A stretch of DNA of 63,970 nucleotides, the filler included, from an uncultured bacterium (GTDB lineage: Bacteria > CAZSTA01), in the NCBI GenBank assembly GCA_964609495.1. It is 4 parts of 4 records of this genome, joined end to end, with 100 filler letters (N's around TTAATTAATTAA, not from the genome) between each part and the next. Parts side by side here need not be neighbours in the genome. Positions count along the whole stretch, not along the records: positions 1 to 16,292 come from CAZSTA010000071.1; positions 16,393 to 32,555 come from CAZSTA010000072.1; positions 32,656 to 48,636 come from CAZSTA010000073.1; positions 48,737 to 63,970 come from CAZSTA010000077.1. One strand, written 5' to 3'. A program made the translations under genes and the position numbers. Under the pieces are notes generated by a model that worked only from the letters and a program-made list of their open reading frames with translations, did no database searches and was not told the DNA's origin. The first letter of the stretch is position 1; every line of letters begins with the position of its first letter. Below are positions 12,975 to 60,216 of the stretch, piece after piece.

Positions 12975-13466
12975 GTGTATGAAGATCAAAGAGTCGGACT
13001 ATTTGTAGATGTTCAGAACATGTTTTATTCTGCTAAGAAGATTTATAATGCTAAATTAGATTTTGAGAAGTTATTAGAAGCTACTATAAGGGGAAGGAAA
13101 ATGATAAGAGCTATCGCTTATATTATTCAATCTCCAAATACTGATCAATCCAGCTTTATCAATATGTTAAAACTCAGGGGATATGAGGTGAAATCTAAAG
13201 ATTTACGTCTTCGCCCAGATGGAACAGCTAAGGGTGATTGGGATATGGGTATCGCCATTGATACCATATCTCTGGTTGATAAATTAGACGTTGCTATTCT
13301 CGTTAGTGGGGATGGAGATTTCATAGACTTGGTAACGATGTTGAAGAGCCGGGGGGTGAGGGTAGAGGTATTTTCCTTTCCAGCAAGCACTAGAACCGAA
13401 CTCATTAGTGTAGCTACGGAGTTCTTCCCTATCCACGATGATATGCTTATCTTCAACTGCGTTTAA
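12975..13466 (+). CDS. NYN domain protein (LabA/DUF88)
   Basis: FVDVQN, KGDWDMGIAID and LVSGDGDF motifs. Confidence 0.92.
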   Translation: MYEDQRVGLFVDVQNMFYSAKKIYNAKLDFEKLLEATIRGRKMIRAIAYIIQSPNTDQSSFINMLKLRGYEVKSKDLRLRPDGTAKGDWDMGIAIDTISLVDKLDVAILVSGDGDFIDLVTMLKSRGVRVEVFSFPASTRTELISVATEFFPIHDDMLIFNCV

Positions 13467-13514
13467 AGGAAACTTTTTTACCTTGAGTTTTGTTTGAAGC
13501 AAAAGTTTCCTTTA
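13464..13514 (-). repeat. Family A ~51-bp palindromic repeat; supplies the NYN stop codon
   Basis: Reverse complement is TAAAGGAAACTTTTGCTTCAAACAAAACTCAAGGTAAAAAAGTTTCCTTTA, 2 differences from the pyrK copy. Confidence 0.9.
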
Positions 13515-13552
13515 TTAAGTGAGGCTCTTTTTGAAGAGAAAGGTGATAGATT

Positions 13553-13891
13553 ATGACTAACTTCGAGATTTTACAAAAGCTTATCAGCCATATCAGATGT
13601 GTCCGTTGCCATGAGTATTACACTGCTGATGACATCGTCCTGCTGCGCGAGGAGGAAGAGAGTCTGATCATAGGGATTCGTTGCTCTCACTGTCATCTAG
13701 GAGGGATTGCTCTGGTTACCATAGATCGTGATCAGACTTTGAGTGAGATATCCGACTTCTCAACCGAGGAGGAGGAAGCGAAGTTCTCCGAGTTGCCTCC
13801 TATCTCTACAGATGAGGTTATAAACTTCTATGAGTTTCTTCGGGATAAGGATATAATGAAGGTGTTGGCAGAAGAAGACATCGATTCGTGA
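13553..13891 (+). CDS. Small hypothetical zinc-ribbon protein
   Basis: CVRC...CSHC cysteine pairs, acidic tail, SD AAGGTG. Confidence 0.7.
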   Translation: MTNFEILQKLISHIRCVRCHEYYTADDIVLLREEEESLIIGIRCSHCHLGGIALVTIDRDQTLSEISDFSTEEEEAKFSELPPISTDEVINFYEFLRDKDIMKVLAEEDIDS

Positions 13892-14063
13892 TCGCTCTCC
13901 TTTGAACTGAGGGATAGAGCGCGAAGGATAATAGTGGACAATCGAAGCTGGGGATATTTTTTGGCTTCATAGGGGTATTCTGTAGGGGAGGATAGTAGCT
14001 AATAATAGTTAAATTCCCTTAGGGAGTTTAGTAACTTCTCAAGAGTAGCAGAATCGATAAAGA

Positions 14064-14097
14064 AGGCTGGAAGAGTGGATATTATCTCTTTCAGCCT
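14064..14097. terminator. Stem-loop between convergent genes
   Basis: AGGCTGGAAGAG...CTCTTTCAGCCT. Confidence 0.5.
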
Positions 14098-14108
14098 ATT
14101 TCTCTCTT

Positions 14109-14340
14109 TAAATCACCCTCCCCTAGCCCCTCCCATCAAGGGAGGGGGAACTAAAGGGCTTTAGTTCAATCTCGGTGTTCCCTCTCCCCTCGTGGGAGAG
14201 GGATAGGGTGAGGGGGGAATTAGGTCTTGAACTCGTCTTAAATCACCCTCCCCTGACCCCTCCCGTCAAGGGAGGGGGAAATAAAAAGAAAGAGATAGGG
14301 TGAGGGGGAATCACACCTTGAAATAATAGTTTGAAACTAC
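14109..14340 (+). mobile_element. Family B MITE/BoxC-like array with an internal tandem duplication
   Basis: Two TAAATCACCCTCCCCT..CCCCTCCC.TCAAGGGAGGGGGAA units; ends TTGAAACTAC followed by TTAA. Confidence 0.75.
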
Positions 14341-17896: not shown

Positions 17897-18036
17897 CTAT
17901 ACTTTCGCAGATTTTCCAAAAATCTACTATTAATAAGAATTTTTGCAGGATTTGTTACACATATCCTCCTCTACCCCCAAATCCGCTTGGAAACGGAGCT
18001 CTCAGTTTAGCATCTTCAAAAACTGCGAAACTATAG
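17897..18036. mobile_element. Family C MITE (140 bp)
   Basis: TIRs CTATACTTTCGCAG/CTGCGAAACTATAG; flanked by TCAATTGCTATTCGAA and TCAATTACTATTCGAG (14/16 direct repeat); inverted homolog at 40958-41095. Confidence 0.8.
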
Positions 18037-18136
18037 TCAATTACTATTCGAGGACAGAACCTCGTTACTTCCTTGATCTGATGTTATAATTTGCAGATTG
18101 CGAAGTCTGGTAATTAAAGGCAATGATCACCAAATA

Positions 18137-18205: not shown

Positions 18206-18394
18206 AGTAGCTTTTCGCTAGGGAGTTCAAGATATAAATCCCCCCTCACCCTAGCCCTCTCCCACGAGGGGAGAGGGAACATTGAGATAAGACTGCTCTC
18301 TTTAGTTCCCCTGCCCTTGAGGGGAGGGTGATTTAAGGTGAGTTCAAGGGCTAATCTGAACTCGAACATCTCAGATAAAAATTTTGAAACTACT
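18206..18394 (-). mobile_element. Family B MITE, reverse orientation
   Basis: Reverse complement aligns with 48231-48430 (GTAGTTTCAA...GAGATGTTCGAG.TCAGATT...BoxC-like hairpins). Confidence 0.8.
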
Positions 18395-24800: not shown

Positions 24801-24844
24801 GGCGAGGTGGACAGGGGGATAGACAAAAGCAAGGGAGGATTGTT

Positions 24845-24952
24845 TAGATCACCCTCCCCTTCCCCCTCCCATCAAGGGAGGGGGAACTAAAGAGAGTAAG
24901 CTTATCTGGATGTCCCCTCTCCCCTCGTGGGAGAGGGATAGGGTGAGGGGGA
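24845..24952 (+). repeat. BoxC-like hairpin pair (family B core)
   Basis: TCACCCTCCCCTTCCCCCTCCCATCAAGGGAGGGGGAA...CCCTCTCCCCTCGTGGGAGAGGGATAGGGTGAGGGG. Confidence 0.85.
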
Positions 24953-24973
24953 AAACCAAAGAGGTGACAATTA

Positions 24974-30780: not shown

Positions 30781-30920
30781 GTAGTTTCAAAATTTTTTAT
30801 CTGAGATGTTCGAGATCAGATTAGGCTTTGAATTTCCCTTAAATCANNNNNNNNNNCTCAATAAACCCTCTCCCACCAGGGGAGAGGGGGAATTATATCT
30901 TAAACTCACTAACGAAAAAC
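30781..30920 (+). mobile_element. Family B MITE, interrupted by a 10-N scaffold gap at 30847-30856
   Basis: TTAA then GTAGTTTCAAAA...CTGAGATGTTCGAGATCAGATT, and a BoxC-like hairpin after the gap. Confidence 0.75.
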
Positions 30921-32655: not shown

Positions 32656-33202
32656 AAAGAGCAGGTATCTTCTTCTCTATGACCCTCCACTCATCTACCC
32701 TTCTTGCCCCCTCTAACATAATGTTCTCGGTATTGAGTCGAACTAAAACGTTCTCCTTCTCCAGCGATAGATCTGGCTCGAAGTTGAACCATCCCTCGCA
32801 GAATCTCATCATCGTATAGGCCGTTTCCTCGATCTCGGGGGTAATATATTCCTTAAGCTCCCTTTCAGATAACAAACCCATCGTCACTAAAGCTCTCCCC
32901 AGCACATCACTTCTTATACGAAGAGGGAGAGATCCCTCCCTCATTTCTCCCCTTTCCTCACTTATCTTCTCAATCACTATCTGCTTCTGCTCTGGAGTAA
33001 TTTTTCCTCTCTTCAACAGGATATCTCCTAGATGCTCTTTCCGATTTATGAGCTCGGCATAGATTATCAGTCCATTCTCAAAATAGATATTTCCGAAATC
33101 GTGTCCATCAGTTACACTTAGGCATCCACTTTTCTGGCCTAAGAAGAGCATCTGCATAATATCTGGTAGGCTAGCTTCCTTTAGGGAACCCTTAATGGCC
33201 AA
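32656..33202 (-). CDS. DUF4388 (PATAN-type) domain protein, 3' truncated
   Basis: MAIKGSLKEASLPDIMQML...KSGCL...IYFENG...MLEGARRVDEW. Confidence 0.85.
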
Positions 33203-33205
33203 GTC

Positions 33206-34384: not shown

Positions 34385-34419
34385 TGGTTCTCAAGTTTGA
34401 CAGCTAGTAAGATGTGGGT

Positions 34420-35031: not shown

Positions 35032-35036
35032 AGCCT

Positions 35037-36922: not shown

Positions 36923-36949
36923 ATCCTATAAGGGGGAGGAATCCTCCCC

Positions 36950-37003: not shown

Positions 37004-37021
37004 CTACCCCTCCTATTTTAT

Positions 37022-38275: not shown

Positions 38276-38289
38276 AATATACCCTGCCT

Positions 38290-38399: not shown

Positions 38400-38400
38400 T

Positions 38401-40935
38401 TTAGGGAAAACCTTTAAGAGCACTATCTAGCTCTATGATCGCCCGAATATTCTTTCGAGCGTGATCTGCTAATCTGCTATCAGGGGAGAGGGCGATATAA
38501 CGTTCCCATTGCTTTATAGCCTCTTCATATTCCTGATTACGGCTGTATACTAGCCCCAGATAATAATAGCCCTCTATATGGCTAGGACTCAACCTTAGAG
38601 CCTCTTTATAGCTCGATATAGCGGAGTCGAAATTATTCTGTTTGTAGAATACATGTCCTAGATCAATATATACATCGGCCTGAGAGGGATCTACCTGAAT
38701 AGCCTTGTAGTATTCTTGCTCAGCTTCTTGGTGTCTCCCCTGCTTGTAATAAACCTCTCCCAAGTGATAACGGGCGAGGGGATAGGTAGGAACTAAATTG
38801 ATGGCTTTCATATACTCCTCTATCGCCTTCTCATACAGGTTCATAAGCTGATAGGTGAAACCGAGCTCGGTATGCACCGAGGCATAACGAGGGTCTAAAC
38901 GCAGAGCCTCCTCATACTCAACGATAGCTTCATCACGCTTCCCTCTATCTCGATAGATATTGGCTAAATTCTTACGAGCTAGTATGTGTTGAGGATTTAT
39001 CTTGAGCACTGTCTCAAATTGTACGATCGCTTCATCATCGTTATTCTGAAGATGATATATTTCTCCTAATATCAGACGAGCTTCAGTCATAGAAGGAGCT
39101 AAATTCAGAGCTTTTTGAGCTTCCTGAAGCGCCTCCTCGTAACGTCCTTGATCGCAATAATTATGGGCCAGAGTTATATAAACTCTCACCTCATCGGCGT
39201 TTACCGCCGGCGGTTCACCTTCTTCCTCTTCTAACTCCGCCATCTCGGCCAAGGCAGCTTCGAATTGGACTTCCTCATCGATCTCCCCTTCTTTCTGCGG
39301 AGGAAGAGCTCCCGAAGAAATTTTTTCAAAATCGAACTTATCAGGTTTAGAGGAGATAATTATATCTAAGATATCGACCTTCAGATTTATCCCTAAGCGA
39401 AATTGAATCGTCTTATAAAAAGGACCTGTCTCCATCGCCAACTTGGTCTCTCTAAGTGATTCTTCATATCTTCCCAAGTGACTCAAAGCAAAGCCCAAAT
39501 TATAATGAGCCTCGACGTAACGAGGTCTTATCTCCAAAGCTTTTATGAATTCAATCCTAGCCTCATTATATTTACCTGTGATCATATAGGCGACTCCTAA
39601 GCTGTTGTGGGCTAAGGGAGAGCGATCGTTTATCTCGAGGGAAGCTCTGTAGGATTCTATCGCTTTCTCAAAATCTCCTCTCTCACTATATATAACTCCG
39701 AGGTTGAGATGAGCCTCGGCACAGCGCTCATTTAAAGCGATAGCTCTCTGAAAAGCCTCTATACCTCTTCCCACCTCTCCTGACTGGCAGTAAATCACTC
39801 CTAAGTTATTATGACCGATCGCATATTCTGGAGAAGCTCTGAGAGTTATCTCATACTCCTCCTTGGCTTCAGCTATTCTCCCCTGTCGGTGATAGATCAC
39901 CCCTAGATCATTATGGGCCTCGGGAGAGTCGGAATCGATCTGAATTGCCTTGTGATATAGTTTCTCAGCTTCGTTATCAAGTCCACGCAGTAGATAAACA
40001 GCTCCCATATCGCGATAGACTGTGCTTACCTCAGGGTCCACCTGTAAGGCTTTCTCAAATTCGCCCATCGCTTCTTCGAGTAGTCCTCGATTAGCGTAGG
40101 CTATTCCTAGATTGTAATGAGCTCGGAAGCTATCCGTCTTGGCTCGATAGGCCTCCTCTATCTCCTCTATCTGTCGGGAATATCCCCGATCTCCGATGCC
40201 CAAGTTAGCTTGAGGTTCGGCATAGGAGTGATCTAGCTCCATTGCTAAATTATACTCCCTCATCGCCTCATCGAGCATCCCTTTCTCTCCATAGACGAAA
40301 CCAAGGCGGAAGTGGGTATCAGCCCAATCGGGATCTAATTGAAGGGCGATCTTAAACTCCGCGATCGCCTTATCATACATACCTTGACTGTAATATATCT
40401 CTCCTAGTTGATTGTGGATGGTTGGGGAGTCAGAGCCTAATTCGAGGGCTTTCCTGTATTCCTCGATAGCCTCCTCATATCTCCCCAAGCTCTTGAAGAC
40501 TGTTCCCAGATCATGATGAGCAGAAGCATAACTTGGCAGAAGCTCGATGGTCTTTTGAAACTCCCGGACCGCTTCTCGAAGTCTTCCCGCTTCCTTATAA
40601 GTTCGTCCTAGTTGATAGTAGGCCTCATAATCACCGGGATTCTTAGCCACCACCATTCGGTATTCTCCGATAGCTTGATCATATCTACCGGTTTCCCTAT
40701 AGACCGTGGTCAGGTTATCCTTAGCCAGGGTATAATCAGGATCTATATCCAACGCCTTTTTGAAAGCCTCTATCGCCTCGTCATACATTCCCCGGTTGTA
40801 ATATACCACCCCTAAATTATTATGAGAACCAGCATCCCTGGGGTCTATCCTCTCCGCGAAGCTACGCAGGATCTCCCTTTCATCCTCGTTAATACTGATT
40901 TCTTCATCTGTTTTATCTCTTCCGCTAGTCGCCAT
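38401..40935 (-). CDS. Large multi-TPR protein
   Basis: About 20 TPR motifs (HNNLGV, AHYNLG) in blocks separated by an acidic linker. Confidence 0.9.
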   Translation of the reverse strand: MATSGRDKTDEEISINEDEREILRSFAERIDPRDAGSHNNLGVVYYNRGMYDEAIEAFKKALDIDPDYTLAKDNLTTVYRETGRYDQAIGEYRMVVAKNPGDYEAYYQLGRTYKEAGRLREAVREFQKTIELLPSYASAHHDLGTVFKSLGRYEEAIEEYRKALELGSDSPTIHNQLGEIYYSQGMYDKAIAEFKIALQLDPDWADTHFRLGFVYGEKGMLDEAMREYNLAMELDHSYAEPQANLGIGDRGYSRQIEEIEEAYRAKTDSFRAHYNLGIAYANRGLLEEAMGEFEKALQVDPEVSTVYRDMGAVYLLRGLDNEAEKLYHKAIQIDSDSPEAHNDLGVIYHRQGRIAEAKEEYEITLRASPEYAIGHNNLGVIYCQSGEVGRGIEAFQRAIALNERCAEAHLNLGVIYSERGDFEKAIESYRASLEINDRSPLAHNSLGVAYMITGKYNEARIEFIKALEIRPRYVEAHYNLGFALSHLGRYEESLRETKLAMETGPFYKTIQFRLGINLKVDILDIIISSKPDKFDFEKISSGALPPQKEGEIDEEVQFEAALAEMAELEEEEGEPPAVNADEVRVYITLAHNYCDQGRYEEALQEAQKALNLAPSMTEARLILGEIYHLQNNDDEAIVQFETVLKINPQHILARKNLANIYRDRGKRDEAIVEYEEALRLDPRYASVHTELGFTYQLMNLYEKAIEEYMKAINLVPTYPLARYHLGEVYYKQGRHQEAEQEYYKAIQVDPSQADVYIDLGHVFYKQNNFDSAISSYKEALRLSPSHIEGYYYLGLVYSRNQEYEEAIKQWERYIALSPDSRLADHARKNIRAIIELDSALKGFP

Positions 40936-40957
40936 CTTTTATCAACTTCCCTATCTA

Positions 40958-41095
40958 CTATAGTTTCGCATTTTTTGAAGACGCTAAACTGAAAACTCGG
41001 TATCTAAGCGGATTTTTGAATATGGGGTATATGTGATACAAACCTTACAAAAACCCGCATTAATAGTAGATGTTTAAAAATCTGCGAAAGTATAG
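40958..41095. mobile_element. Family C MITE (138 bp), inverted relative to the 17897 copy
   Basis: TIRs CTATAGTTTCGCA/TGCGAAAGTATAG; 7-bp direct repeat CTATCTA at 40951-40957 and 41096-41102. Confidence 0.8.
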
Positions 41096-41151
41096 CTATC
41101 TAATAATATTATAAATTATAGTAAGTAGATCGAACAATTCCTCTAATAGAT

Positions 41152-41180
41152 ATTATACCACTTTCATCGCTCTTTTTCAA
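41152..41180 (-). promoter_or_regulatory. sigma70-type promoter for the TPR-Mgl module
   Basis: Minus strand TTGAAA-17bp-TATAAT. Confidence 0.65.
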
Positions 41181-41213
41181 CTCAGAGTTTTTATAATTTG
41201 GGAATCCTAGGGG

Positions 41214-41288
41214 TATCTTAGATCTTCTCATCAATTCTTGAAGTTTATCGGCTACCTCCTCAGCTAGATCTTGAGCAGAGGCACTCAT
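41214..41288 (-). pseudogene. 3' remnant of a methyl-accepting chemotaxis protein gene
   Basis: Reads MSASAQDLAEEVADKLQELMRRSKI, like the typical MCP C-terminus (SASAQELA.MAE.LQ.LV..FKI); begins 2 nt after the cheB stop. Confidence 0.65.
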
Positions 41289-41290
41289 CT

Positions 41291-42400
41291 TTATAAAGCC
41301 CGAAGTATCTCTGTGGCTATCTTATCTAAGGGAACTACTTTATCTATCTGGCCTGAGGCGATCGCTGATTTGGGCATTCCGAATACCACACAGGAGTCAC
41401 GATCTTGAGCTATTGTTCTACCTCCTCTTCTCTTTATCTCTCTTATCCCTTCGGTCCCATCCCTCCCCATTCCGGTGAGAATTACTCCCGCGCTATTACT
41501 TCCATAGACTTCAGCTACCGAGGCCATAGTTATATCCACGGCTGGTCTTACTCCTAAATGTAAGGGTCCTTGATTTAGGGTAGCGTTGATCTCATAATTT
41601 TCTTGCTCATTTATCCTTCCTGTAACTTCTAAGTGGTAGTTCCCAGGGGCTACCAAAACTCTCCCAGGGAGAACTGTATCTCCCTCCGTCGCCTCCTTGA
41701 CCTCGAGCTGAGATCTTTCGTTCAAACGTTCCGCTAGCGATCTGGTAAAACCAGGGGGCATATGCTGAACTACGATAATCCCGGTCTCGATATCAGCAGG
41801 AAGCTTAGCTAATATTTGGATAAGGGCGCGTGGTCCTCCAGTCGAGGCTCCGATAACTACGGCCTTATTTTTTGTTGTTCTTTCTCTCTCGATTGATACT
41901 GGTTTGGTGAGAACTTCTTCCTCTTTATGATCTAACTTCCTCACCTCAATATTGGCTGCTGTTCTCACCTTGGAGATGAGATTATCCATCACTCGAGAAA
42001 TATCCAGGGATATCTCTCCCGAGGGCTTAGGCACGAAATCGACTGCCCCTAATTCCAGCGATTTTATTGTGGCTTGAGCATCGATTCTGGTATGGGCGCT
42101 TAACATAATAACTGGAGTAGGGAACTCCTTCATAATGTGCTTAAGAGTGCTTATCCCGTCCAGGCGAGGCATCTCTATATCTAAAGTGATGACATCGGGT
42201 CTTAATTGTAGTATCTTTTCCAGGGCATCCTCTCCATTTCTAGCTGTGGCGATAACCTCGATATCTGGATAGGAGTTAAGCATATCTGATACAACCGTCC
42301 TTATGAAAGCCGAGTCATCTACAACTAGAACCCTTATCTTGTTTCTCACAGGAGGGTAGCTCTCCTCTCCACTCCTCTGCATTCTATTCACAGTTCCCAC
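41291..42400 (-). CDS. cheB: Chemotaxis methylesterase response regulator
   Basis: REC domain (VVDDS, LDIEMP); GASTGGP, VQHMP and LTGMGRDG. Confidence 0.96.
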   Translation of the reverse strand: MGTVNRMQRSGEESYPPVRNKIRVLVVDDSAFIRTVVSDMLNSYPDIEVIATARNGEDALEKILQLRPDVITLDIEMPRLDGISTLKHIMKEFPTPVIMLSAHTRIDAQATIKSLELGAVDFVPKPSGEISLDISRVMDNLISKVRTAANIEVRKLDHKEEEVLTKPVSIERERTTKNKAVVIGASTGGPRALIQILAKLPADIETGIIVVQHMPPGFTRSLAERLNERSQLEVKEATEGDTVLPGRVLVAPGNYHLEVTGRINEQENYEINATLNQGPLHLGVRPAVDITMASVAEVYGSNSAGVILTGMGRDGTEGIREIKRRGGRTIAQDRDSCVVFGMPKSAIASGQIDKVVPLDKIATEILRAL

Positions 42401-42873
42401 TTGCCTTTTTTAACAGATCTAACTACTACTAAACCATTCTCGGTGAAGAATTCAAGAGAGCGGCCATAGTTCCCTCCGGTATCCTCAGCAACTATGTCGA
42501 TTTCTTTATTATTTAATATCTTTTTAACTGCCAGGATATTTCTCCCTCCTATACTTTTCATTCTGTTATTCATAGTTGAGGAGAACATACTCGCTCCTCC
42601 TACTAATTTAGCCTTTATTCTCCTCTGAGAGGCTCTTAGTATCATCATCTCCTCGATCATAAGATCAATCGCTAGATCAGCGAACTTCGCTGGATATTTC
42701 CTCTTATTCGATATAGAACTATCTGGTAACATTATATGAGCTAATCCCCCCAACTTCTTGAGGGGGTCGTATAACATGACCGCTACGCAGGAGCCTAGTC
42801 CATAGGTTACTAAAATATTGGGACTTTGGGTAACCTTAATTTCTGATGATTTTACCCTTAATATCTCTCTCAT
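42388..42873 (-). CDS. cheD: Chemoreceptor glutamine deamidase
   Basis: TYGLGSCVAV, GGLAHIMLP, AKLVGGASMF and EDTGG..GR. Confidence 0.95.
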   Translation of the reverse strand: MREILRVKSSEIKVTQSPNILVTYGLGSCVAVMLYDPLKKLGGLAHIMLPDSSISNKRKYPAKFADLAIDLMIEEMMILRASQRRIKAKLVGGASMFSSTMNNRMKSIGGRNILAVKKILNNKEIDIVAEDTGGNYGRSLEFFTENGLVVVRSVKKGKWEL

Positions 42874-42910
42874 CTAAAATTATTACTCCTCTTTCCGCCC
42901 CAATCTTTAT

Positions 42911-42957
42911 AAAAAACCGGCGTGAAAACCCCTACCCTTGTGGTAGGGGTGGTTGAC
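42911..42957 (-). mobile_element. 47-bp solo-hairpin remnant of an IscB-type IS200/IS605 element
   Basis: Minus strand GTCAACCACCCCTACCACAAGGGTAGGGGTTTTCACGCCGGTTTTTT then ATAAA; joins both end motifs of the 57730-59238 element through one shared hairpin. Confidence 0.8.
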
Positions 42958-42961
42958 TATC

Positions 42962-43795
42962 TTAGGAAAGCCTCTTCCTGAATACTCTCTCCCTATTATT
43001 TACCCTTTCAAATAGGTTGACCGCTCTCCCCACTAGGGTCTCGACCTTTCCCAATACCAGATATCCTCCCGCTCTTAAGCAAGATAGAAAATCCAAGAAG
43101 AGCCTCTCCTGTAATTCTCGAGAGAAGTAGATCACTACATTACGACATAGGATCATATCGAGATTGGTGGGTCCCATCTCCGAAATCAAGTCCGATTTCC
43201 GAAAATCCACCATTTTCTTTATCTCATCTTTTAATATATATTCCCCCCTCCTGCCTGGAGAAAAGTATTTGCTAAGTAGGTTGGGAGATAAATTATCCGT
43301 GCCATAGGCTTGATATACTCCATTTCTCGCTCGCTCGATGCTGGCATCATCTATGTCTGTGCCCCAGATCTTAATATTATAACTTTCTCGTTTTTTGGCG
43401 GATAGCAACTCTTTTAGCAAAATAGCTAGAGAGTATGGCTCTTCCCCTGCCGCACATCCCGCGCTCCAGATTCTAATTGAAGTCATCGCTTCGAATCTCT
43501 TTTCCGCGATTAATTCGGGCAGGATATTTTCATAGAGGAAATCGAAGGTCTCTGGATTGCGGAAGAACTCTGTTACATTGATCGTTAAGGAGTCCAAGAG
43601 TTTGTCATACTCGTCAGGATTCTTATCTAAGATATTCATATACTCTCGATAAGAGCTCACCTTATTAGCTCTCATTCGGACTGCGATCCTGCGTTTCTGA
43701 CATTTATCCTTATAAAGCGAACAGTTGAAGCCTCTATCTCTTTTTATCTTCTGTTGAAGAAGCTCAAATTCCCTTTTATCATCAACTATATCCAT
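42962..43795 (-). CDS. cheR: Chemotaxis methyltransferase
   Basis: TINVTEFFRN, IWSAGCAAGEEPYS and CRNVVIYF. Confidence 0.96.
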   Translation of the reverse strand: MDIVDDKREFELLQQKIKRDRGFNCSLYKDKCQKRRIAVRMRANKVSSYREYMNILDKNPDEYDKLLDSLTINVTEFFRNPETFDFLYENILPELIAEKRFEAMTSIRIWSAGCAAGEEPYSLAILLKELLSAKKRESYNIKIWGTDIDDASIERARNGVYQAYGTDNLSPNLLSKYFSPGRRGEYILKDEIKKMVDFRKSDLISEMGPTNLDMILCRNVVIYFSRELQERLFLDFLSCLRAGGYLVLGKVETLVGRAVNLFERVNNRERVFRKRLS

Positions 43796-43811
43796 AGTTC
43801 TCCCTAAATGT

Positions 43812-44423
43812 CTATTCTAATTGCATTGATTTAAGGATATTGTTTAAGGAATTGAGGTTAGGCATCAGGAGAAAGTATCCCCGAATATCTTTATTACGTT
43901 TCCCAGGGAAGATGAAGTGGGTCTCGATGCAAAAGACTCTATCCTCCTTCAGGTCAGAGAAGGATAGATTCAAGATAGCTCCAGGGGCATCCACGATAAG
44001 ATTGGGAATGGAGGGCAAAAGAGACATCTCAAGAAAGCTACTTAAGGCACTTAAATAAGAGCCTGAAAGGATATTAACAACCTCTTTAAGGGAGGATTGC
44101 TCCATCTCAGCTAGAATCGCTCTCTCATCTTCTCCTCCAAGAAGCATATTGACTAGGTTAATAGCACAATCTCTGGGAAATAACATCAAGATCCTTCCGG
44201 TTATATCCCCAAACACGGAGAGCATAACGCTCACGGCAAAAGAATCGGAGGAGGATCCCATTAGGCTTTGGCTCACCTCCTCTACGGGGATAAATATCAC
44301 TTGAGGTACATTGATCATCGTTCGTTCTCCAGTGAGTTCAGACAGAGCTGTAGCGGCATGGCCAGCTCCGATATTTCCCACCTCTCGGAGGGCATCTAGC
44401 TGTAATTTTTCCAACCTCCTCAT
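43812..44423 (-). CDS. cheC: CheC phosphatase
   Basis: DALREVGNIGAGHAATALS and SSLKEVVNIL. Confidence 0.95.
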   Translation of the reverse strand: MRRLEKLQLDALREVGNIGAGHAATALSELTGERTMINVPQVIFIPVEEVSQSLMGSSSDSFAVSVMLSVFGDITGRILMLFPRDCAINLVNMLLGGEDERAILAEMEQSSLKEVVNILSGSYLSALSSFLEMSLLPSIPNLIVDAPGAILNLSFSDLKEDRVFCIETHFIFPGKRNKDIRGYFLLMPNLNSLNNILKSMQLE

Positions 44424-44445
44424 AAGTCACTCTCCTTAAAAGTAT

Positions 44446-46449
44446 TTAGAGCAGGCTCTTTATATCTAGAATCAAGGATGGACTACCATCTCCCAGAATA
44501 GTCACTCCGGCAAAACCTTTGACCTCGGATAGGATTTTCCCCAGAGACTTTATAACGATCTCCTGCTGGTCAACTAAAGAATCTACTATCAATCCCCCTC
44601 TCCTATTACCTATCTCCACCACTACCACGGAGAGAGGATATCGTTCCTCCTGCTGGCATCCGAAAACATCGCTTAATTTAAGGAGAGGGACAACCATCCC
44701 CCTCCACAGTATGACCTTCTGCCCCTTAACGGTTTTTATATCATCTTTATACACATCTATGACCTCTCCGACGTGAGAGAGAGAAATAGCATATACCTCT
44801 TCTCCTATCCTGATAAGCATCGCCGGGATGATAGCTAAGGTGAGAGGTAACCTCATTGTGAATTTGCTGCCCTTTCCCAGAGAAGAGCTTATCTCTAGGT
44901 TGCCTCCCAGATCTCTCAGCTTAGCCATAACTATATCCATCCCCACCCCCCGTCCTGAGACATCTGTTACTTCCTTCGCGGTGGAGACACCAGGTATAGT
45001 TATTAGCATCAGGATCTCCTCTTCGGTCAACTGAGAGGCTTCCTCGGGAGTAATAGCTCTTTTCTCTAAAGCTACTTTGAGTAATAGATCGGGATCCATT
45101 CCCCGTCCATCATCCTCTACGGTGATGAGTATCTCGTTTCGAGTCCGCTCTGCCCGAAGCCATATCACCCCCCTGGGATATTTCCCCTTCGCCGTTCTCT
45201 CCACTATCGGCTCGATCCCGTGATCTATAGAGTTGCGTATCAGGTGAATCAAGGGATCTCCGATCTGCTCGAGAATAGTTCGATCTACCTCTATCTCCCT
45301 CCCCTCGATTACAAGTTCTATCTCCTTTCCCTTCTCCCTAGCAAAGTCCCTGACCATCCTTGGAAATCTATCGAATATCTGTAAAATTGGGACCATTCTG
45401 ACTCGCATAACCTCATCCTGAAGATTAGAGGTCAGTCTTGAGACATATATCAGTAACTCGTTTAATTCCTCCAGATTATACTTGGATCCTACTTGAACTA
45501 GTCTGCTTTTATATATTACTAATTCCTCCACCAGCCTCATCAGGTCATCCAGATACTCAATGTTGACCTGCACCCTACTACTGACTTTGAAGGTTGGTGT
45601 TAACTTCTCGACTCTCGGCTGAGGTCCTAAGACTTCTCCTCCAACAGGTGCCGATACCTTATTGATCATCTCCTCTGTCTTGGGAGGAGGCAACTCTTCT
45701 ACTTCTAGAGGAGTGATCAAAACCTCATGGACCTCGGGAATGGGATTCAGAGATTTCTGGAGGCTCTCTTGATCCTTCTCAGTAACAAAATAGACTTCGA
45801 AGCCCAGCTCATAGCTAACATCGAAATCTTCGCTTTCGATGAAACTTCGGGCTGGACTCGATCCTATAATCTCTCCCCACTCTTCGAGGCTTTTAAAGAT
45901 CATATAAGCTCTAACGGATTTAAATGCACAGTTAACCTCTAAAGTTATCTCTATCTTAAAAGCAGTCCTTCCTTTTTCCTCTGCCTTTTCCAAAGCCTTC
46001 TGTTCAACAGGACTCAGTTTGATCTTTGCTTGAGGCCCTTCTCTTTGTCCCACTTCTTTTATTAGGCTTTGGGCCACTTTTAGCCTTCTTAATATAGAGG
46101 ATATATCGGATCTCTCCTCATTCCCAGTTTCCACCTCGTCGATAAGATTCTCTAAGTTATCCAAGGCATTGAAGATGATTTCTATAAGATCGGGCTCTGG
46201 TCTTCCTTTGCCACTGCGCCAGATATCAAAAATATTCTCTATCTCATGGGCTAGTTCCATTATCTTATCATATTTCATAGTTGCCGAACTGCCCTTTATC
46301 GTGTGAATTGAGCGGAATATCTCATCTATAATATCAGGTTGGCTGGGATTACCTTCCAACCTCACTAGAAGTTGATTTAGGAGTGATAGATTTTCTCGAG
46401 TTTCGTTTAAGAATATGTCTTTATAGCGGGAGACATCCATCAACTTCAC
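44446..46449 (-). CDS. cheA: Chemotaxis histidine kinase
   Basis: HPt HTIKG, HLIRNSIDHG, DDGRG, DVSGRGVGMD and a C-terminal CheW domain. Confidence 0.96.
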   Translation of the reverse strand: MKLMDVSRYKDIFLNETRENLSLLNQLLVRLEGNPSQPDIIDEIFRSIHTIKGSSATMKYDKIMELAHEIENIFDIWRSGKGRPEPDLIEIIFNALDNLENLIDEVETGNEERSDISSILRRLKVAQSLIKEVGQREGPQAKIKLSPVEQKALEKAEEKGRTAFKIEITLEVNCAFKSVRAYMIFKSLEEWGEIIGSSPARSFIESEDFDVSYELGFEVYFVTEKDQESLQKSLNPIPEVHEVLITPLEVEELPPPKTEEMINKVSAPVGGEVLGPQPRVEKLTPTFKVSSRVQVNIEYLDDLMRLVEELVIYKSRLVQVGSKYNLEELNELLIYVSRLTSNLQDEVMRVRMVPILQIFDRFPRMVRDFAREKGKEIELVIEGREIEVDRTILEQIGDPLIHLIRNSIDHGIEPIVERTAKGKYPRGVIWLRAERTRNEILITVEDDGRGMDPDLLLKVALEKRAITPEEASQLTEEEILMLITIPGVSTAKEVTDVSGRGVGMDIVMAKLRDLGGNLEISSSLGKGSKFTMRLPLTLAIIPAMLIRIGEEVYAISLSHVGEVIDVYKDDIKTVKGQKVILWRGMVVPLLKLSDVFGCQQEERYPLSVVVVEIGNRRGGLIVDSLVDQQEIVIKSLGKILSEVKGFAGVTILGDGSPSLILDIKSLL

Positions 46450-46489
46450 CTCGCCTTATTGGAAAATGAGAAATAGCTGATATCTCTAT

Positions 46490-46542
46490 TAAAAGGAAAC
46501 TTTTTAACCTTATATATGTTTGTCTGCAAAAGCTTCGTTTTT
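46490..46542 (-). repeat. Family A repeat, diverged intergenic copy between cheY and cheA
   Basis: Reverse complement AAAAACGAAGCTTTTGCAGACAAACATATATAAGGTTAAAAAGTTTCCTTTTA. Confidence 0.7.
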
Positions 46543-46560
46543 CCTGGGCTTTTATGAGGT

Positions 46561-46923
46561 TCAACTCAAGATCCTTTGTAAAGCTTCTAATACTTTACTA
46601 GGCTGAAATGGCTTCACAATAAAATCCTTAGCTCCCGCCTGCAAGGCTTCTATTACTAGAGCCTGTTGCCCCATTGCACTACACATTATTATCTTAGCTT
46701 GAGGATCATATTCAATTATTTCACTGGCAGCTTCTATGCCTCCCATATCGGGCATAATTATATCCATAGTTACTACATCTGGCTTTAGCTCTTTGTACTT
46801 TCCTACCGCCTCGATCCCCGTCCCAGCTTCACCTACTACTTCATAACCGTCTCTTTTCAATATATCTCTTATCATAGATCTCATGAAGAGAGCGTCATCA
46901 ACTATCAATACTCTCCGACCCAT
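46561..46923 (-). CDS. cheY: Chemotaxis response regulator
   Basis: VDDALFMR, TMDIIMP, CSAMGQ and FIVKPF. Confidence 0.95.
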   Translation of the reverse strand: MGRRVLIVDDALFMRSMIRDILKRDGYEVVGEAGTGIEAVGKYKELKPDVVTMDIIMPDMGGIEAASEIIEYDPQAKIIMCSAMGQQALVIEALQAGAKDFIVKPFQPSKVLEALQRILS

Positions 46924-46929
46924 AAGTTG

Positions 46930-47478
46930 CTAAGCCTCCTCTTTAAAGGATTCGATCTTGTTAATATTAATATCAGGTGGCTGAGAACTCCCCGCTAGAT
47001 CGCTAGATTTTTCTCTGAAAGTTTCTTCTCTAACAGTGAGCACTCTTTCCATATCCAGAAGGATCAATAATCTTCCATTCAACTTGCCGACTCCCTCGAT
47101 GAAAGTGATATCTACTGAGCTAGATATGAAGGAGGGAGCAAAATCTATACTCTCCTTTGGTATCCACTCCACTCCTATGATGCGGGGGACGAGCATCCCA
47201 ACTCTCTGATCCTCCATATCTATCACTATTATCATCGTATCCTCCCCATATTCAGTTTTAGGGAGGCCTAACCTCCCTTCTAGATCTATAACCGAGATCA
47301 CATCTCCTCTTAAATTAAATAGTCCCTTTATGAATTCGGGCGCTCGTGGCACTCGGGTGATCTTCCCGATATCGCTTATCTCTTTAACTTGGGTAAGTCT
47401 AACCCCGAATTCCTCTCGACCGATCTCGAATACCAGCACTTGCACCCTTTCCTCTTCTCTTTCCTCTCTGTTGGGCAA
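46930..47478 (-). CDS. cheW: Chemotaxis coupling protein
   Basis: ITRVPRAPEFIKGLFNLRG. Confidence 0.92.
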   Translation of the reverse strand: MPNREEREEERVQVLVFEIGREEFGVRLTQVKEISDIGKITRVPRAPEFIKGLFNLRGDVISVIDLEGRLGLPKTEYGEDTMIIVIDMEDQRVGMLVPRIIGVEWIPKESIDFAPSFISSSVDITFIEGVGKLNGRLLILLDMERVLTVREETFREKSSDLAGSSQPPDININKIESFKEEA

Positions 47479-47512
47479 ATCCGATCCCTCCTTGGTTACA
47501 AGCCTAGGGGAG

Positions 47513-48230: not shown

Positions 48231-48460
48231 AGTAGTTTCAAAGAGGTTTCCCTGAGATGTTCGAGATCAGATTGGGTCTTGAACTTCCCTTAAATCATCC
48301 TCCTCCAACCCCTTCCATCAAGGGAGGGGGAAATAAAGAGAGCAGTCTTATCTCAATGTTCCCTCTCCCCTGGTGGGAGAGGGATAGGGTGAGGGGGAAG
48401 TTATATCCTGAACTCGCTATCGAAAAACTAGGAATAACCGATTACTTACTTGAAACTACT
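48231..48460 (+). mobile_element. Complete family B MITE (~230 bp) with terminal inverted repeats
   Basis: ATTTAAGTAGTTTCAA...TTGAAACTACTTAAAT perfect 16-bp IR (TTAA or TA target duplication); two internal BoxC-like hairpins. Confidence 0.85.
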
Positions 48461-48746: not shown

Positions 48747-48860
48747 TTATCACCCTCCCCCTAACCCCCTCCCATCGAGGGAGGGGGAACTAAAGAGATC
48801 AGCTCTATCTCGATGTCCCCTCTCCCCTTGTGGGAGAGGGCCAGGGTGAGGGGGAATTAT
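48747..48860 (+). repeat. BoxC-like hairpin pair (family B core) at the contig start
   Basis: TCACCCTCCCCCTAACCCCCTCCCATCGAGGGAGGGGGAA...CCCTCTCCCCTTGTGGGAGAGGG. Confidence 0.85.
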
Positions 48861-54555: not shown

Positions 54556-54578
54556 TATCGATCGAAAGCGGAGGTTTC

Positions 54579-55569: not shown

Positions 55570-56880
55570 ATGAAATTATTATTAAAGGGCGGTCGAGTTA
55601 TAGATCCTGCTACTGCTCTTGATGAAGTGATGGATATATTGATCGAAGATAGCAAGATAGTAGCTATGGGTAGCTATATCTCCGCCTCCGAGGCTTGCCT
55701 TGTGGATGTCAGAGGCAAGATAGTCGCCCCTGGCTTGATAGATATGCATACCCATTTAAGAGAGCCTGGTTATGAGGATAAAGAGGATATCGCTTCAGGG
55801 ACAAAGAGCGCCGCTAAAGGGGGATTTACCAGTGTAGCGTGTATGCCAAATACCGAGCCGCCCCTGGACGATCAAGCTAAGCTTCAATTTGTTCTGGATA
55901 AGGCGAGGCGCGAGGGGGTTGTCAATGTCTTCCCGATAGGATGTATCACTAAGGGGCGTAAAGGAGAGGAGTTGACGGAGATAGCTGAGTTGAAGAGAAG
56001 CGGAGCAGTAGCGATCTCTGATGATGGACAGTCCGTTCCCAGATCCGATCTACTTCGTCGAGCTTTAGAATATGCAGGGATGTTCAACCTACCAGTTATC
56101 GAGCATTGCGAGGATAAAGATCTCGCCCAAGATGGGGTTATGAACGAGGGATATATGTCCACTGTTTTGGGGCTGAGAGGTATCCCCGAGGCGGCGGAGG
56201 AGATCATAGTAGCTCGGGATATCATCTTAGCAGAGATGAGTGGAAGTCACATCCACATCGCTCATGCTAGCACCGCGCGAACAGTGGAACTCATCCGGGA
56301 AGCTAAGCAGAGAGGAGTAAAGGTCACCGCAGAGGCCACCCCCCATCACTTGATCTTGACCGAGGAGGCGGTATCTGATTATAACACTAATACTAAGGTT
56401 AACCCTCCGCTTCGAACTGAGGATGATGTAGAGGCTCTTCGCGTTGGTTTAGTGGATGGAACGATAGATGCTATCGCTACCGATCACGCTCCTCATACTA
56501 TTGAGGATAAACAGGTAGAATATGATTATGCCCCCTTCGGGATATCGGGATTGGAGACGGCAGTTCCTCTCCTTATAACTCATCTAGTTCAACCAGGGAT
56601 TATCTCTTTAAGTGATCTCATATCCAAGATGACTATAGAGCCAGCTAGGATATTAAGACTCGACAAAGGAAGGTTGGAAGTGGGAGGAGAGGCTGATATA
56701 ACCGTCATTGACCTCGATAGAGAGGATATCGTCGAGGTAGCCGAATTCGAGTCGAGGGGGAAGAACTCCCCCTTTCAGGGATGGAAGCTAAGGGGATATC
56801 CCTCTCTGACGATAGTTGGAGGAAGGATAGTCTTTAGCGCCCTAGAAAAAGTTATTTCGGAAATTAGCGATGATAGTTGA
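55570..56880 (+). CDS. pyrC: Dihydroorotase
   Basis: DMHTHLREPG, KVNPPLR and ATDHAPH. Confidence 0.96.
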   Translation: MKLLLKGGRVIDPATALDEVMDILIEDSKIVAMGSYISASEACLVDVRGKIVAPGLIDMHTHLREPGYEDKEDIASGTKSAAKGGFTSVACMPNTEPPLDDQAKLQFVLDKARREGVVNVFPIGCITKGRKGEELTEIAELKRSGAVAISDDGQSVPRSDLLRRALEYAGMFNLPVIEHCEDKDLAQDGVMNEGYMSTVLGLRGIPEAAEEIIVARDIILAEMSGSHIHIAHASTARTVELIREAKQRGVKVTAEATPHHLILTEEAVSDYNTNTKVNPPLRTEDDVEALRVGLVDGTIDAIATDHAPHTIEDKQVEYDYAPFGISGLETAVPLLITHLVQPGIISLSDLISKMTIEPARILRLDKGRLEVGGEADITVIDLDREDIVEVAEFESRGKNSPFQGWKLRGYPSLTIVGGRIVFSALEKVISEISDDS

Positions 56881-57763
56881 TATAATCGATAATATAAAGG
56901 TGGCGGATGCTCACTTCAGGATGATCTTGAATGCGGACTCTCTAGCTAGGGAGGTTCAACCCGGTCAATTCGTTCACCTAAGATGCAGGGATAAGTTCTA
57001 TTACGATCCCCTTCTGAGAAGACCGTTTAGTATCCATCGCTTTAATCGTGATAGAGGGGAAGTTCAAATACTCTACAAGGTTATCGGTAAAGGGACTTCT
57101 TGGCTAGCGGAGAGGGGAAATGGGCATAAATAAGATTTACTCGGTCCTTTGGGGCAAGGTTTCAATATCCACTCTAATTCGGATAATGCTATATTGGTAG
57201 CTGGAGGGATAGGAGTAGCTCCTCTCCTAGCCCTGGCTGACCTTATCCGGGGAGAATATCCTCATATAAATTTGGTTGTGCTTCTAGGAGCTAGGAAGAG
57301 AGAGGAGCTACTTTGTGAGAGGGATTTTAGGGATACAGGAGCAGAAGTAATACCCGTTACGGATGATGGAAGTTGGGGGAGGAAGGCATTAGTTACCGAA
57401 ATTTTAGAAGATATATTAAGGGAGAGGGGGGAAAGGAAGCCAGATAAAAAGAGGAGTGTAATCTATTCCTGCGGTCCAAAAGAGATGCTTAGAGAGGTCT
57501 CTCGCTTGAGTATGGAGTATGGACTCCCCTGCCAGATATCATTGGAGGAGATGATGGCTTGTGGAGTAGGAGCTTGTTTAGGCTGTGTCGTAGCCGTTCA
57601 ATCGAGTGTAAAGGAAACTTTTGCTTCCAATAAAACTCAAGGTAAAAAAGTTTCCTTTAAAGGTGAATCTCCGAAGTATAAGAGAGTTTGTGTAGAAGGC
57701 CCTGTTTTCTCCGCTGAAGAGGTGATCCTGTCAACAACCCCTACCACGAGGGTAGGGGCTTGA
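56870..57763 (+). pseudogene. pyrK: Dihydroorotate dehydrogenase electron transfer subunit with an in-frame TAA at 57131-57133
   Basis: PGQFV, LRRPFSI, GHK*DLLGPLGQGF, GGIGVAP and CGVGACLGC...VCVEGPVF; both ORF pieces share one frame. Confidence 0.85.
57609..57659 (+). repeat. Family A repeat, in-frame in the pyrK 2Fe-2S loop
   Basis: TAAAGGAAACTTTTGCTTCCAATAAAACTCAAGGTAAAAAAGTTTCCTTTA, encoding [16 protein letters not shown]. Confidence 0.92.
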
Positions 57764-57976
57764 GAGATCAAGCCCTGGTTGACTAGGAGGCACTGGTATA
57801 GTGCAGAAGTTAGCGAAGAGAAATACATACACACCTGGGGATACTCCTCTCGTTCCCAGCTCTGTGGCTTGTCATTAAACAGTTCTGAGGGTAGGAACAG
57901 TGTGACAGGCTTAAAAACCTTGGCTAACAACTCCGAAGAGGCTCTAACCCACCGTTAGGTGGAGTAAGGAGGCTTT
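57730..57976 (+). ncRNA. omegaRNA (HEARO-type) scaffold
   Basis: Starts GTCAAC...GTTGAC enclosing hairpins; further stems GTCA..AC-GTTC..GAAC-GTGTGAC; directly 5' of iscB. Confidence 0.85.
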
Positions 57977-59176
57977 ATGTTAGCCTTCGTTATTAACAGA
58001 GATAGGAAACCTTTGATGCCTTGCCATTCTGCTAAAGCAAGGATACTGCTTAAAGAAGGTAAGGCGAAGGTAGTCAGAAGAAAGCCGTTCACTATTCAGT
58101 TGTTATATGGTAGTTCTGGTTACAAGCAACCGATCACTCTGGGAGTAGATGCAGGTTATAGCAGTATTGGTCTATCTGCTATCACTGAGAAGGAGGAAGT
58201 TTTCCGAGCCGAGGTAAGATTAAGAGACGACATTGTAAAGCTCAATTCGGAAAGGAGGATATATCGTAGAGCAAGAAGAGGGCGTAAGAGATGGCATCGT
58301 AAAGCACGCTTCCTTAATCGCAAGAAACCGGAGGGTTGGTTAGCTCCTTCTATTCGGCATAAGTTAGACTCACATATTAGGATAATTGAGAAGGTTAAAG
58401 AGCTATTACCTATTACTAAAATAATCGTAGAGGTAGCTTCCTTTGATATTCAGAAGATCAAGAATCCTGATATTTCAGGGAGAGAATATCAGAATGGGGA
58501 ACAGAAAGGGTTTGGGAATGTTAGAGAATATGTCCTCTATCGAGATAATCATACTTGTCGACACTGTAAAGGCCGATCTAAGGATCCGGTCTTAGAAGTT
58601 CATCATATCGAGACGAGACAGATCGGTGGGAACAGGCCAGATGATTTAATTACACTCTGCTCTACTTGTCATCGGAAGGTATCTCAGGGGAAACTTAAGC
58701 TTAAGGTTCAGCCATCTAAAGGATTTAGAGCAGAAACTTTTATGACTATGATTAGGTGGAGATTAGTTAATGAGCTAAGAAAAAGAGGTAACGAGGTTTC
58801 TCATACCTATGGGTATATTACAAAGCAGAGACGGATAGAATTAGGACTGGAGAAATCCCATATTAACGATGCTTTTGCGATAGCCGGAGGTAAGGGGCAG
58901 AGTAGATTATCCAATTATTATTTAATTCAGCAAGTTAGGAAGCAGAATCGCAGGTTGTTTAAGGGTAAAAGAAGTCATATTAGAAATACTGCTCCCAGAT
59001 TTATAGAGGGTTTTCAAAGATATGATAAGGTGTTATATCGAAGAGAGGAGTGTTTCATATATGGCAGGCGTAGTGCTGGTTATTTTAATTTGAGGAAGTT
59101 AGATGGTGATGTTATTCACCAGTCGGCAAAGGTTAAAGAGTTGAAGTTATTAGAAACATTTAAGACTTTATTATGA
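57977..59176 (+). CDS. iscB: RNA-guided endonuclease IscB
   Basis: PLMP domain, RuvC-I LGVDAG, bridge helix [11 protein letters not shown], Ruv[14 protein letters not shown] (CRHC...HHI...LCSTCH), Ruv[12 protein letters not shown]. Confidence 0.95.
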
Positions 59177-59238
59177 GAGGAGGAGGTGTCGGCTTCTTCC
59201 CCTACCACGAGGGTAGGGGTTTCCGCCGACTAGTTTCT

Positions 59239-60216
59239 ATGAAGGGGGAGACAATAAAGGAAACTTTTGCAGGCAATAAAACTCAAGGTAAAAAAGTTTC
59301 CTTTAAACCGAACTTAGAGGTTCTGCTAGGTGGAATAAGGATGAAGAATCCAGTTATGGTCGCCTCGGGGACTTTCGGGTATGGGGAGGAGTACTCCTCC
59401 TACGTTGACCTGAATAGATTAGGAGCTATCGTAGTAAAGGGAACTACCTTGAAGCCTCGGGAGGGGAATCCTCCTCCTCGGATAGTGGAGACTCCAGCAG
59501 GTATCCTTAACGCCATCGGATTGCAGAACGTAGGAATAGAAGTATTCCTCAAGGAGAAGATGAGTTATCTACGTCAATTTGATACTGCTATCATCGTCAA
59601 TATCGCTGGAGAGAGGATCGAGGAATATATCAAATTAGCTGAGATACTCGATGAGGTAGAAGGGATCGCTGGGCTAGAGCTTAATATCTCTTGTCCAAAT
59701 GTCAAAAAAGGGGGATCGGCGTTTGGAGCTAACCCTGAAGTAACTTATGAGGTGGTAAGTAGGGTCAGAAGAGTTACCCATCTTCCCCTTATCGTTAAGC
59801 TTTCTCCCAATGTAGGGGATATAGCATCTATCGCTCACAGGGCCGAGGAGGCAGGGGCTGATGTCCTATCACTTATCAATACCTTATTAGGAATGGCAAT
59901 AGATATAGAGGCTCGCAGACCGATATTAGCTAACATCACTGGAGGATTATCAGGACCAGCTATTAAACCCATCGCCTTGCGAATGGTATGGCAGGTAGCT
60001 AAGGCAGTGAAGATCCCCGTCGTAGGAATGGGAGGAATCACAACTGTCGAGGATGCCTTGGAATTTATCATCGCTGGAGCCAGAGCGGTAGCTATAGGCA
60101 CCGCTAATTTCATCGAGCCTCGAACCTGCATAAATATAATTGAGGGCTTGGAGAAATATCTGAAGGAGAATAATATAGCTGATATAAGGGAATTGATAGG
60201 TAGTTTAAGGGTATGA
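59239..60216 (+). CDS. pyrD: Dihydroorotate dehydrogenase (family 1B); alternative in-frame start at 59173
   Basis: [31 protein letters not shown] and [10 protein letters not shown]. Confidence 0.95.
59255..59305 (+). repeat. Family A repeat, in-frame at the pyrD N-terminus
   Basis: TAAAGGAAACTTTTGCAGGCAATAAAACTCAAGGTAAAAAAGTTTCCTTTA, encoding [16 protein letters not shown]. Confidence 0.92.

Follow-up and report, generated by a model that had tools for sequence, protein, structure and literature searches.

How does one short palindrome come to lie, on the same strand and in the same reading frame, within the genes of four unrelated proteins of a single uncultured bacterium? The question is raised by a window of 63,970 nt (the whole stretch of DNA analyzed here; assembly GCA_964609495.1, lineage CAZSTA01), which consists of four contigs joined by N spacers and carries copies of a 51-nt hairpin on three of the four. 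We consider the hairpin to represent a very small, non-autonomous, AT-rich foldback family, resembling in kind a MITE (miniature inverted-repeat transposable element) and in behavior a Rickettsia palindromic element (RPE), present at high copy number in one uncultured sediment lineage, and we put the probability of this reading at roughly three in four. The initial annotation of the window had listed eight copies and proposed a small mobile hairpin by which proteins across the lineage acquire the same peptide. All eight sites on the three contigs are borne out by nhmmer searches, by repeat finding and by reading the sequence directly, and the broader proposal fits with 24 further contigs, new host genes, covariation in the stem and copies of identical sequence.

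Four of the window copies lie in coding frames, all in the sense orientation and in one frame, and, as originally described, they share an NKTQG peptide, with the consensus xETFA(S/G/D)NKTQG(K/S)KV(S/P)(F/L). In pyrK (56870-57763, + strand), the consensus copy (57609-57659, +; fold -10 kcal/mol, z -4.1) falls between the third and fourth 2Fe-2S cysteines. The pyrD gene (59173-60216, +), whose first ATG overlaps the iscB stop codon (ATGA, 59173-59176) and which has an alternative ATG at 59239, carries its copy (59255-59305, +) in the N-terminal region, upstream of the conserved first strand, KPNLEV. The third copy has a decayed left arm (33661-33711, -) and encodes NEALAGNKTQGSKVPF just before the Walker B motif of a DnaA-like AAA+ ATPase (33206-34384, -), in which the Bac_DnaA domain (residues 137-304) spans the insert. 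The fourth (35884-35934, -; -12.6 kcal/mol, z -5.3), distinguished by a compensatory G-C stem pair, encodes KGTFADNKTQGSKVPL in the linker before the C-terminal roadblock domain of a TPR protein with two Roadblock/LC7 domains (35543-36922, -).

The remaining window copies are intergenic. One is a 51-nt copy at 13464-13514 (-); its terminal TAA (13464-13466, + strand) is also the stop codon of an NYN-domain open reading frame (ORF) at 12975-13466. Another is a 53-nt variant (36951-37003, +) with the loop AATAGAACTCACGG and the stem GGAAAC/GTTACC. At 38290-38399 (+) lies a composite: a variant copy (38331-38377) and a G-rich hairpin are set between the arms of an outer copy, the left at 38290-38312 and the right at 38387-38399. 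The last (46491-46541, -), between cheA and cheY, is a variant with a different loop, ACATATATAAGG, and a decayed stem.

Recurrence on this scale is not expected by chance: a 16-nt arm, allowing up to three mismatches, is matched 12 times in the window against 0.66 expected, and none of 100 shuffles reaches 12. A metagenome scan returned 26 contigs, two of which (L017 and L025) are the window itself, leaving 24 that are independent. The search pattern constrained positions 21-35 and 38-44 and left the left arm and the outer right arm free. An nhmmer profile built from five window copies then identified 43 copies at E < 1e-3 in the window and the 24 contigs, and 41 of these are non-redundant once two pairs of orthologous contigs from different data sets (L008/L013, 97.5%; L014/L021, 95.4%) are each counted a single time.

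The unit as it stands at 57609-57659 is TAAAGGAAACTTTTGCTTCCAATAAAACTCAAGGTAAAAAAGTTTCCTTTA, an AT-rich palindrome of 51 nt with T-A ends. Positions 1-14 pair with positions 38-51 to form a stem of 14 bp (14-15), which encloses a 23-nt loop with a conserved core. The G+C content is 27% (14/51, counted on the 57609 copy) versus 40-54% in the window, and since the flanks are unrelated from copy to copy, the boundaries of the unit are sharp. Folded as DNA, consensus copies reach -10 to -12.6 kcal/mol with z-scores of -4 to -5.3; the decayed copies at 33661 and 46491 fold no better than shuffles. Among 32 aligned copies (27 distinct rows), 93.7% of the stem cells are paired. The covariation score is equalled by none of 500 shuffles, and slid controls stay far below it, with part of the counts of pairs changed on both sides due to 53-nt variants that keep their pairing in a shifted register. 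At stem positions 7/45 (alignment columns 8/46), for example, the pair is A-U in 20 and G-C in 3 of the 27 distinct rows. The compensatory GGGAAC/GTTCCC change that had been noticed in the 35885 copy is evident on direct reading and is in line with this covariation. Although the search pattern left them free, the left arm and the outer part of the right arm hardly vary among the 29 non-redundant full copies, whereas positions 17-20 form a hypervariable 4-nt patch in the loop. The termini are T at position 1 and A at position 51 in 17 of the 29, with A-T at positions 2/50 in 24, and linked variants define subfamilies.

If the hairpin was inserted into its host genes, homologs without it should be found, and the initial annotation had suggested looking for them. 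The peptide is missing from homologs of PyrD, PyrK, RmlD (a host on another contig, L007) and DnaA. All 11 aligned PyrD homologs (56-73% identity) lack the peptide and start a few residues before KPNLEV; no in-frame ATG, GTG or TTG lies between the window copy and KPNLEV. Internal duplications of 60-130 residues of their own sequence were seen in three PyrD homologs of other assemblies (P0124, P0125 and P0127), which are probably assembly or gene-call artefacts. In PyrK, the loop between the third and fourth cysteines is 34 aa long, 16 of them contributed by the repeat peptide; the loop is much shorter in 12 of 14 homologs and, in the other two, long but of unrelated sequence (range 6-34 aa). 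A shallow AlphaFold model of PyrK (15 sequences, mean pLDDT 77.9) places the insert, residues 155-171, in a low-confidence loop with pLDDT < 50. When RmlD is aligned to two solved structures, they leave a gap of 18 aa precisely where the peptide lies. For the ATPase, the prediction that removal of the insert would restore a canonical Walker B context holds: without 16 aa the protein reads RYKEVDVLLIDD (RYK joined to EVDVLLIDD), with the same spacing as RYRNVDVLLIDD in the solved Bacillus subtilis DnaA. The alignment of the GH38 mannosidase (L027) to solved structures ends before the insert. For the roadblock protein, homologs share only 28-30% identity and vary in the linker, and so say nothing about an empty site.

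The only close ortholog of the ATPase that we found, P0005 (86% identity), has the same element in the same place, with a left half nearer the consensus (KGTFAD). After TQG it has 17 further residues, SGNFCFKKDSRKKSYQN, which correspond to a nested repeat copy in frame +1. This nested copy arose, or was lost, after the split from the window lineage. On contigs L003, L022 and L027, composites show their interruption at the very loop position where P0005 has its own, which suggests either that the loop holds a preferred target or that partial duplications recur there. Identity over 51/51 bases unites five copies from unrelated loci, as would be produced by recent spread.

A trivial origin of the in-frame copies would be misassembly, with contigs misjoined at the shared 51-mer. 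Short-read assemblies do break at the copies (loose ends at 35886 and 35932), and contigs of four public runs end there with many different continuations and a loose-end agreement of ~0.5, as expected from a multi-copy repeat. However, in the ATPase, PyrK, the roadblock protein, RmlD and the GH38 protein the copy is bracketed by Pfam domains belonging to one family, which rules out chimeric joins there. Around every coding copy the two flanks share both protein family and frame, and the ATPase copy is found alike in three independent data sets: the window, P0005 (another assembly) and a run X6 contig that spans it. Misjoining is thus an extremely improbable source of the coding copies.

Across the 41 non-redundant copies, 12 are in ORFs: ten in frame +2, which gives NKTQG, two in frame 0 and none antisense. 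Besides RmlD and the GH38 mannosidase, the NKTQG-frame hosts on metagenome contigs include an O-antigen-ligase-like membrane protein (Wzy_C; L005) and, in their N-terminal regions, an Asp23-family protein (L002) and a methyltransferase (L019). Also on L002, a tRNA-Sec gene (821-913, -; 76.8 bits) adjoins selB, and a 51-mer copy begins 3 nt from the tRNA 5' end (821-967). The two copies in frame 0 are a decayed one in an LpxB-like protein (L005) and one at L006 2790-2840 (-), where a variant loop reads ATG AAA TTT AAG GTT AAA AAG (ATG, then KFKVKKLPL). The L006 copy seems to provide both the start codon and the positively charged N-region of the signal peptide (MKFKVKKLPLNIILISSLLIILLF…) of a 570-aa FG-GAP protein. 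In all, in-frame copies occur in at least nine unrelated genes; among the 12 copies in ORFs, the status of the one at L006:85 and of the N-terminal cases hinges on which start codon is chosen.

About 70% of all copies are intergenic, with some 12 in the sense and 13 in the antisense orientation by hand tally. Because intergenic copies occur in both orientations, the sense-only pattern within genes points to selection rather than to an insertion bias. The initial annotation had gone further on the matter of frames, stating that only two of the six are free of stops and that only one is used. The first statement is correct for the TAAAGG/AATAAA consensus but fails for variants with AAAAGG or AACAAA, which open further frames; the second was too strict, given frame 0 in L005 and L006 and frame +1 in the ortholog P0005. 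There is also an open antisense frame (KGNFFTLSF...), found in stop-to-stop frames upstream of AtpA (L015) and in non-Pfam ORF sequence in L004 and L003. These antisense frames were left out of the coding count; the one in L015 may be a short N-terminal extension of AtpA. All four variants of 52-53 nt (window 36951, L015 2959, L023 and L027 4231) are outside Pfam-supported genes.

This distribution can be accounted for by a simple scheme, in which we infer transposition as the copying process, a selective filter acting on its products and translation of the peptide. Copies would be made by an enzyme encoded elsewhere in the genome and would land in both orientations. With a length of exactly 17 codons, the 51-mer would never shift the downstream frame on insertion, and selection would remove those insertions that bring in a stop codon or a hydrophobic peptide. 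The survivors within genes would be sense copies, mostly in the stop-free hydrophilic frame K-E-T-F-A-S/G/D-N-K-T-Q-G-K/S-K-V-S/P-F, at tolerated sites such as N-termini, interdomain linkers and variable surface loops. In-frame insertions would therefore survive owing to the 17-codon length combined with a single hydrophilic stop-free frame.

In a more ambitious version of this scheme, the need to be translated without harm would have molded, by selection, the sequence of a 17-codon "coding MITE", and its preferred targets would be the loops of extruded hairpins, including those of its own copies. The pattern of variation is suggestive in this respect. In 29 of 29 copies, intergenic ones included, the hypervariable 4-nt patch, the one stretch outside the search pattern that varies strongly, consists of the third base of an Ala codon followed by a codon for Ser, Gly or Asp; Ser at this position is encoded by both codon families, TCN and AGC, and the other common differences in the 51-mer are synonymous or conservative in the NKTQG frame. 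The shared loop position at which the three composites and P0005 are interrupted fits the same version. We considered the codon-like variation as proof of selection on the peptide and rejected it, since the variants are linked into a few subfamilies and thus reflect few independent events. If the element were nevertheless of this kind, gene-embedded copies would seed new copies, or the family would be selected as a whole for tolerability, and some enzyme would act on hairpin loops. We regard this version as possible but doubtful.

Several observations weigh against a mobile family of this kind. The window ORFs and the open frames of the other loci, 137 in all from ~136 kb, include neither a transposase nor an autonomous element whose ends match, in line with the initial annotation, which had named no mobiliser. 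An exact empty site in a close relative was not seen: contigs from runs X1, X2, X3 and X6 covering 32700-47500 show no skip at any 51-nt copy, and a ~96% relative in run X6 (a contig with 38 differences in 1060 nt) keeps the window's ATPase copy. Estimates of the net insert disagree, at 16 aa from DnaA, 17 aa from P0005 and 18 aa from RmlD. No target duplication beyond the T-A ends was detected, in that direct repeats of k 2-7 at 8 x 8 boundary offsets were not above shuffled flanks; the internal TA/TA alone stands out, with 16 against 12.7 expected. In the metagenome copies, the search pattern itself accounts in part for the conservation of the loop at positions 21-35 and 38-44. Finally, pyrK has an in-frame TAA (57131-57133; …GNGHK-stop-DLLGPLGQGF…) where all homologs have a residue; this host may be a pseudogene, inactive, a strain variant or a sequence error. 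An IscB element contributes, with its left end, the last 10 codons of the gene. The hosts other than pyrK are intact. The integrity of the downstream frame in every gene-embedded copy also implies a net length that is a multiple of three, which excludes a 47-bp core flanked by a TA duplication.

Some of the same observations would suit an old, immobile relic, maintained by vertical inheritance, by gene conversion or through some usefulness of the hairpin or peptide to the host. Orthologous copies are common to related strains (L008/L013 and L014/L021), as the ATPase copy is to the ~96% relative; the contigs of the four runs show no empty site; and the restriction of the variable loop codon to Ser, Gly or Asp could reflect selection on the peptide. 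However, a relic is difficult to reconcile with copies identical over 51/51 bases at five unrelated loci, with a nested copy that separates two orthologs at 86% identity, with the ~70% of copies that are intergenic and in both orientations, or with the existence of decayed copies, by which conservation is not general. We judge this explanation quite unlikely and retain a mobile, non-autonomous foldback family as the best account.

One candidate for a mobiliser lies in the window itself. Inserted between pyrK and pyrD (57730-59230) there is an IscB gene (RRXRR and HNH domains; 57977-59176) and, beside it, a HEARO/omega RNA (Rfam RF02033; 57730-57948, 135.8 bits), the element having GC-rich end hairpins at 57737-57759 and 59198-59220. 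The 51-mer copies could then be single-stranded DNA hairpins moved by an HUH tyrosine transposase, either in the manner of repetitive extragenic palindromes (REPs) and their hairpin doublets (REPINs) via a REP-associated tyrosine transposase (RAYT), or as derivatives of the local IscB element, which is of the IS200/IS605 type. HUH enzymes recognize substrates of this sort, and the 51-mer forms one stable hairpin whose loop is conserved. Two same-strand copies flank the IscB/HEARO unit, and further copies tend to sit in the loops of existing ones, which would suit an enzyme acting on extruded hairpins. As a mobiliser, though, the IscB/HEARO unit was rejected: its own GC-rich end hairpins are unrelated to the 51-mer, and the left 51-mer copy, 70 nt inside pyrK and upstream of the fourth cysteine, cannot be the end of an insertion sequence (IS). 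More generally, no conserved 4-5-nt target adjoins the copies, the GTAG/CGTC head that serves as a criterion for REPs in PMC3733652 is absent from the 51-mer, REPs are extragenic by definition, and neither a Y1 transposase nor a RAYT gene was found in the ~136 kb scanned. Movement by an HUH enzyme is therefore an unlikely explanation.

The IscB end hairpins do resemble a second repeat family, of ~50-120 nt, made up of GC-rich hairpins of the form CCCTCTCCC-ACGA-GGGGAGAGGG. In the window its members are at 6521-6621, 14089-14310, 18208-18385, 24825-24953, 30790-30891, 48247-48430 and 48747-48858, and copies of the 51-mer often have C/G-rich hairpins directly beside them in their flanks. To this GC-rich family, and not to the 51-mer, belongs a presence/absence difference between cheD and cheR: a 48-nt stretch (42911-42958) with the hairpin CCCCTACCC-TTGT-GGTAGGGG is skipped in one run X6 contig, which has one other letter instead. 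On the 1258-nt contig L020, two tandem HEARO RNAs (517-738 and 881-1104, -; 129 and 127 bits) occur in the absence of an IscB gene, and a 51-mer copy (390-440) lies just downstream of them. The window also has an inverted pair of ~120 nt (17913-18037 and 40957-41080, 88% and 75% complementary). Since all four runs show elevated contig depth over 40604-41097, it probably represents one more dispersed repeat.

The window segment 33206-38400 is contained in 24 public sequencing runs, labeled as salt marsh, marsh or marine sediment, with no RNA run among the public runs listed, and the nearest named homologs of the host proteins are from metagenome-assembled genomes of Goldbacteria, Atribacterota and Gemmatimonadota. 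A scan of species-representative genomes with the loop pattern gave a single match, in Flavobacterium (L001), which was taken as chance without inspection of the second arm. Viral contigs had no match to the loop pattern; three matched the left-arm pattern, none of them with a right arm, and these were attributed to chance. A plasmid collection yielded only 23-nt partial matches with an E-value of 0.9, Rfam had no match at the 51-mer copies, and a limited literature search, which is no proof of absence, turned up no element of 51-nt size with in-frame copies. We regard the repeat as a real, newly seen family of mini-palindromic elements that behave like RPEs.

If so, selfish hairpin DNA would be able to enter conserved enzymes and leave them undestroyed, as with PyrD, RmlD, a glycosidase and a DnaA-type ATPase, and its copies would amount to a natural experiment on which protein sites tolerate a loop of 16-17 residues. 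The L006 case raises the possibility that new protein parts are fashioned from copies. Annotation is affected as well, in that repeats of this sort fragment short-read assemblies and the shared peptides can mislead homology searches.

Among known systems, the closest parallel is with RPEs. As they are described in two reviews (PMC2229807, PMC10969869), these are palindromes found both between genes and in frame within many unrelated conserved genes, where they encode a family-specific peptide at sites compatible with the protein fold, and their mobiliser is unknown. Like them, the 51-mer is palindromic with a stem-loop and occurs in frame in unrelated genes, with the NKTQG peptide in 10 of the 12 copies in ORFs. 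It differs in size, being 51 bp or 17 codons long compared to the 105-146 bp, or ~150 bp, given in PMC2229807, and in its host: RPEs belong to the obligate intracellular Rickettsia, whereas the run labels point to a free-living sediment lineage. The hypervariable 4-nt patch in the loop and the nesting of copies in the loops of other copies are further distinctions.

The comparison with MITEs is similarly mixed. The features attributed to Delihas for bacterial MITEs in PMC2229807 are terminal inverted repeats, TA termini, A+T-richness, target duplications, a length of 100-200 bp and, often, open frames, and the Coxiella MITEs (PMC5896051) provide a further bacterial comparison. The 51-mer has the terminal inverted repeats (its 14-bp arms), the TA termini and the A+T-richness, but at 51 nt, or 52-53 nt in the variants, it is only a half to a third of that size. 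According to PMC2229807, fusions in frame are known from RPE, from ERIC and from Correia in its 107-bp form; the 51-mer resembles the latter (Correia/NEMIS), ERIC and YPAL in having stop-free frames fused to host ORFs. MITE forms that bear stops remain intergenic according to that review, and likewise the 52-53-nt and stop-bearing variants of the 51-mer are outside Pfam-supported genes. In contrast to Correia, ERIC and YPAL, which usually show a target duplication, the 51-mer has none above shuffled flanks, and whereas a matching IS has been proposed for RUP (IS630-Spn1), no partner IS was found for the 51-mer in the ~136 kb.

REPs and REPINs are presented (PMC3733652, PMC3116915) as non-autonomous, high-copy palindromes of 20-40 bp or hairpin doublets. 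REPs are G+C-rich and extragenic and carry their characteristic head; the 51-mer, at 27% G+C, lacks that head, and ORFs contain 12 of its 41 copies. Elements derived from IS200/IS605 have a fixed 4-5-nt target and subterminal hairpins like those of the parent, neither of which is seen here, where the flanks are unconserved and the IscB hairpins differ. In-frame, protein-coding palindromes have so far been documented mainly in Rickettsia, with scattered cases among ERIC, Correia and YPAL; next to these, the 51-mer would be a clear second case on a large scale.

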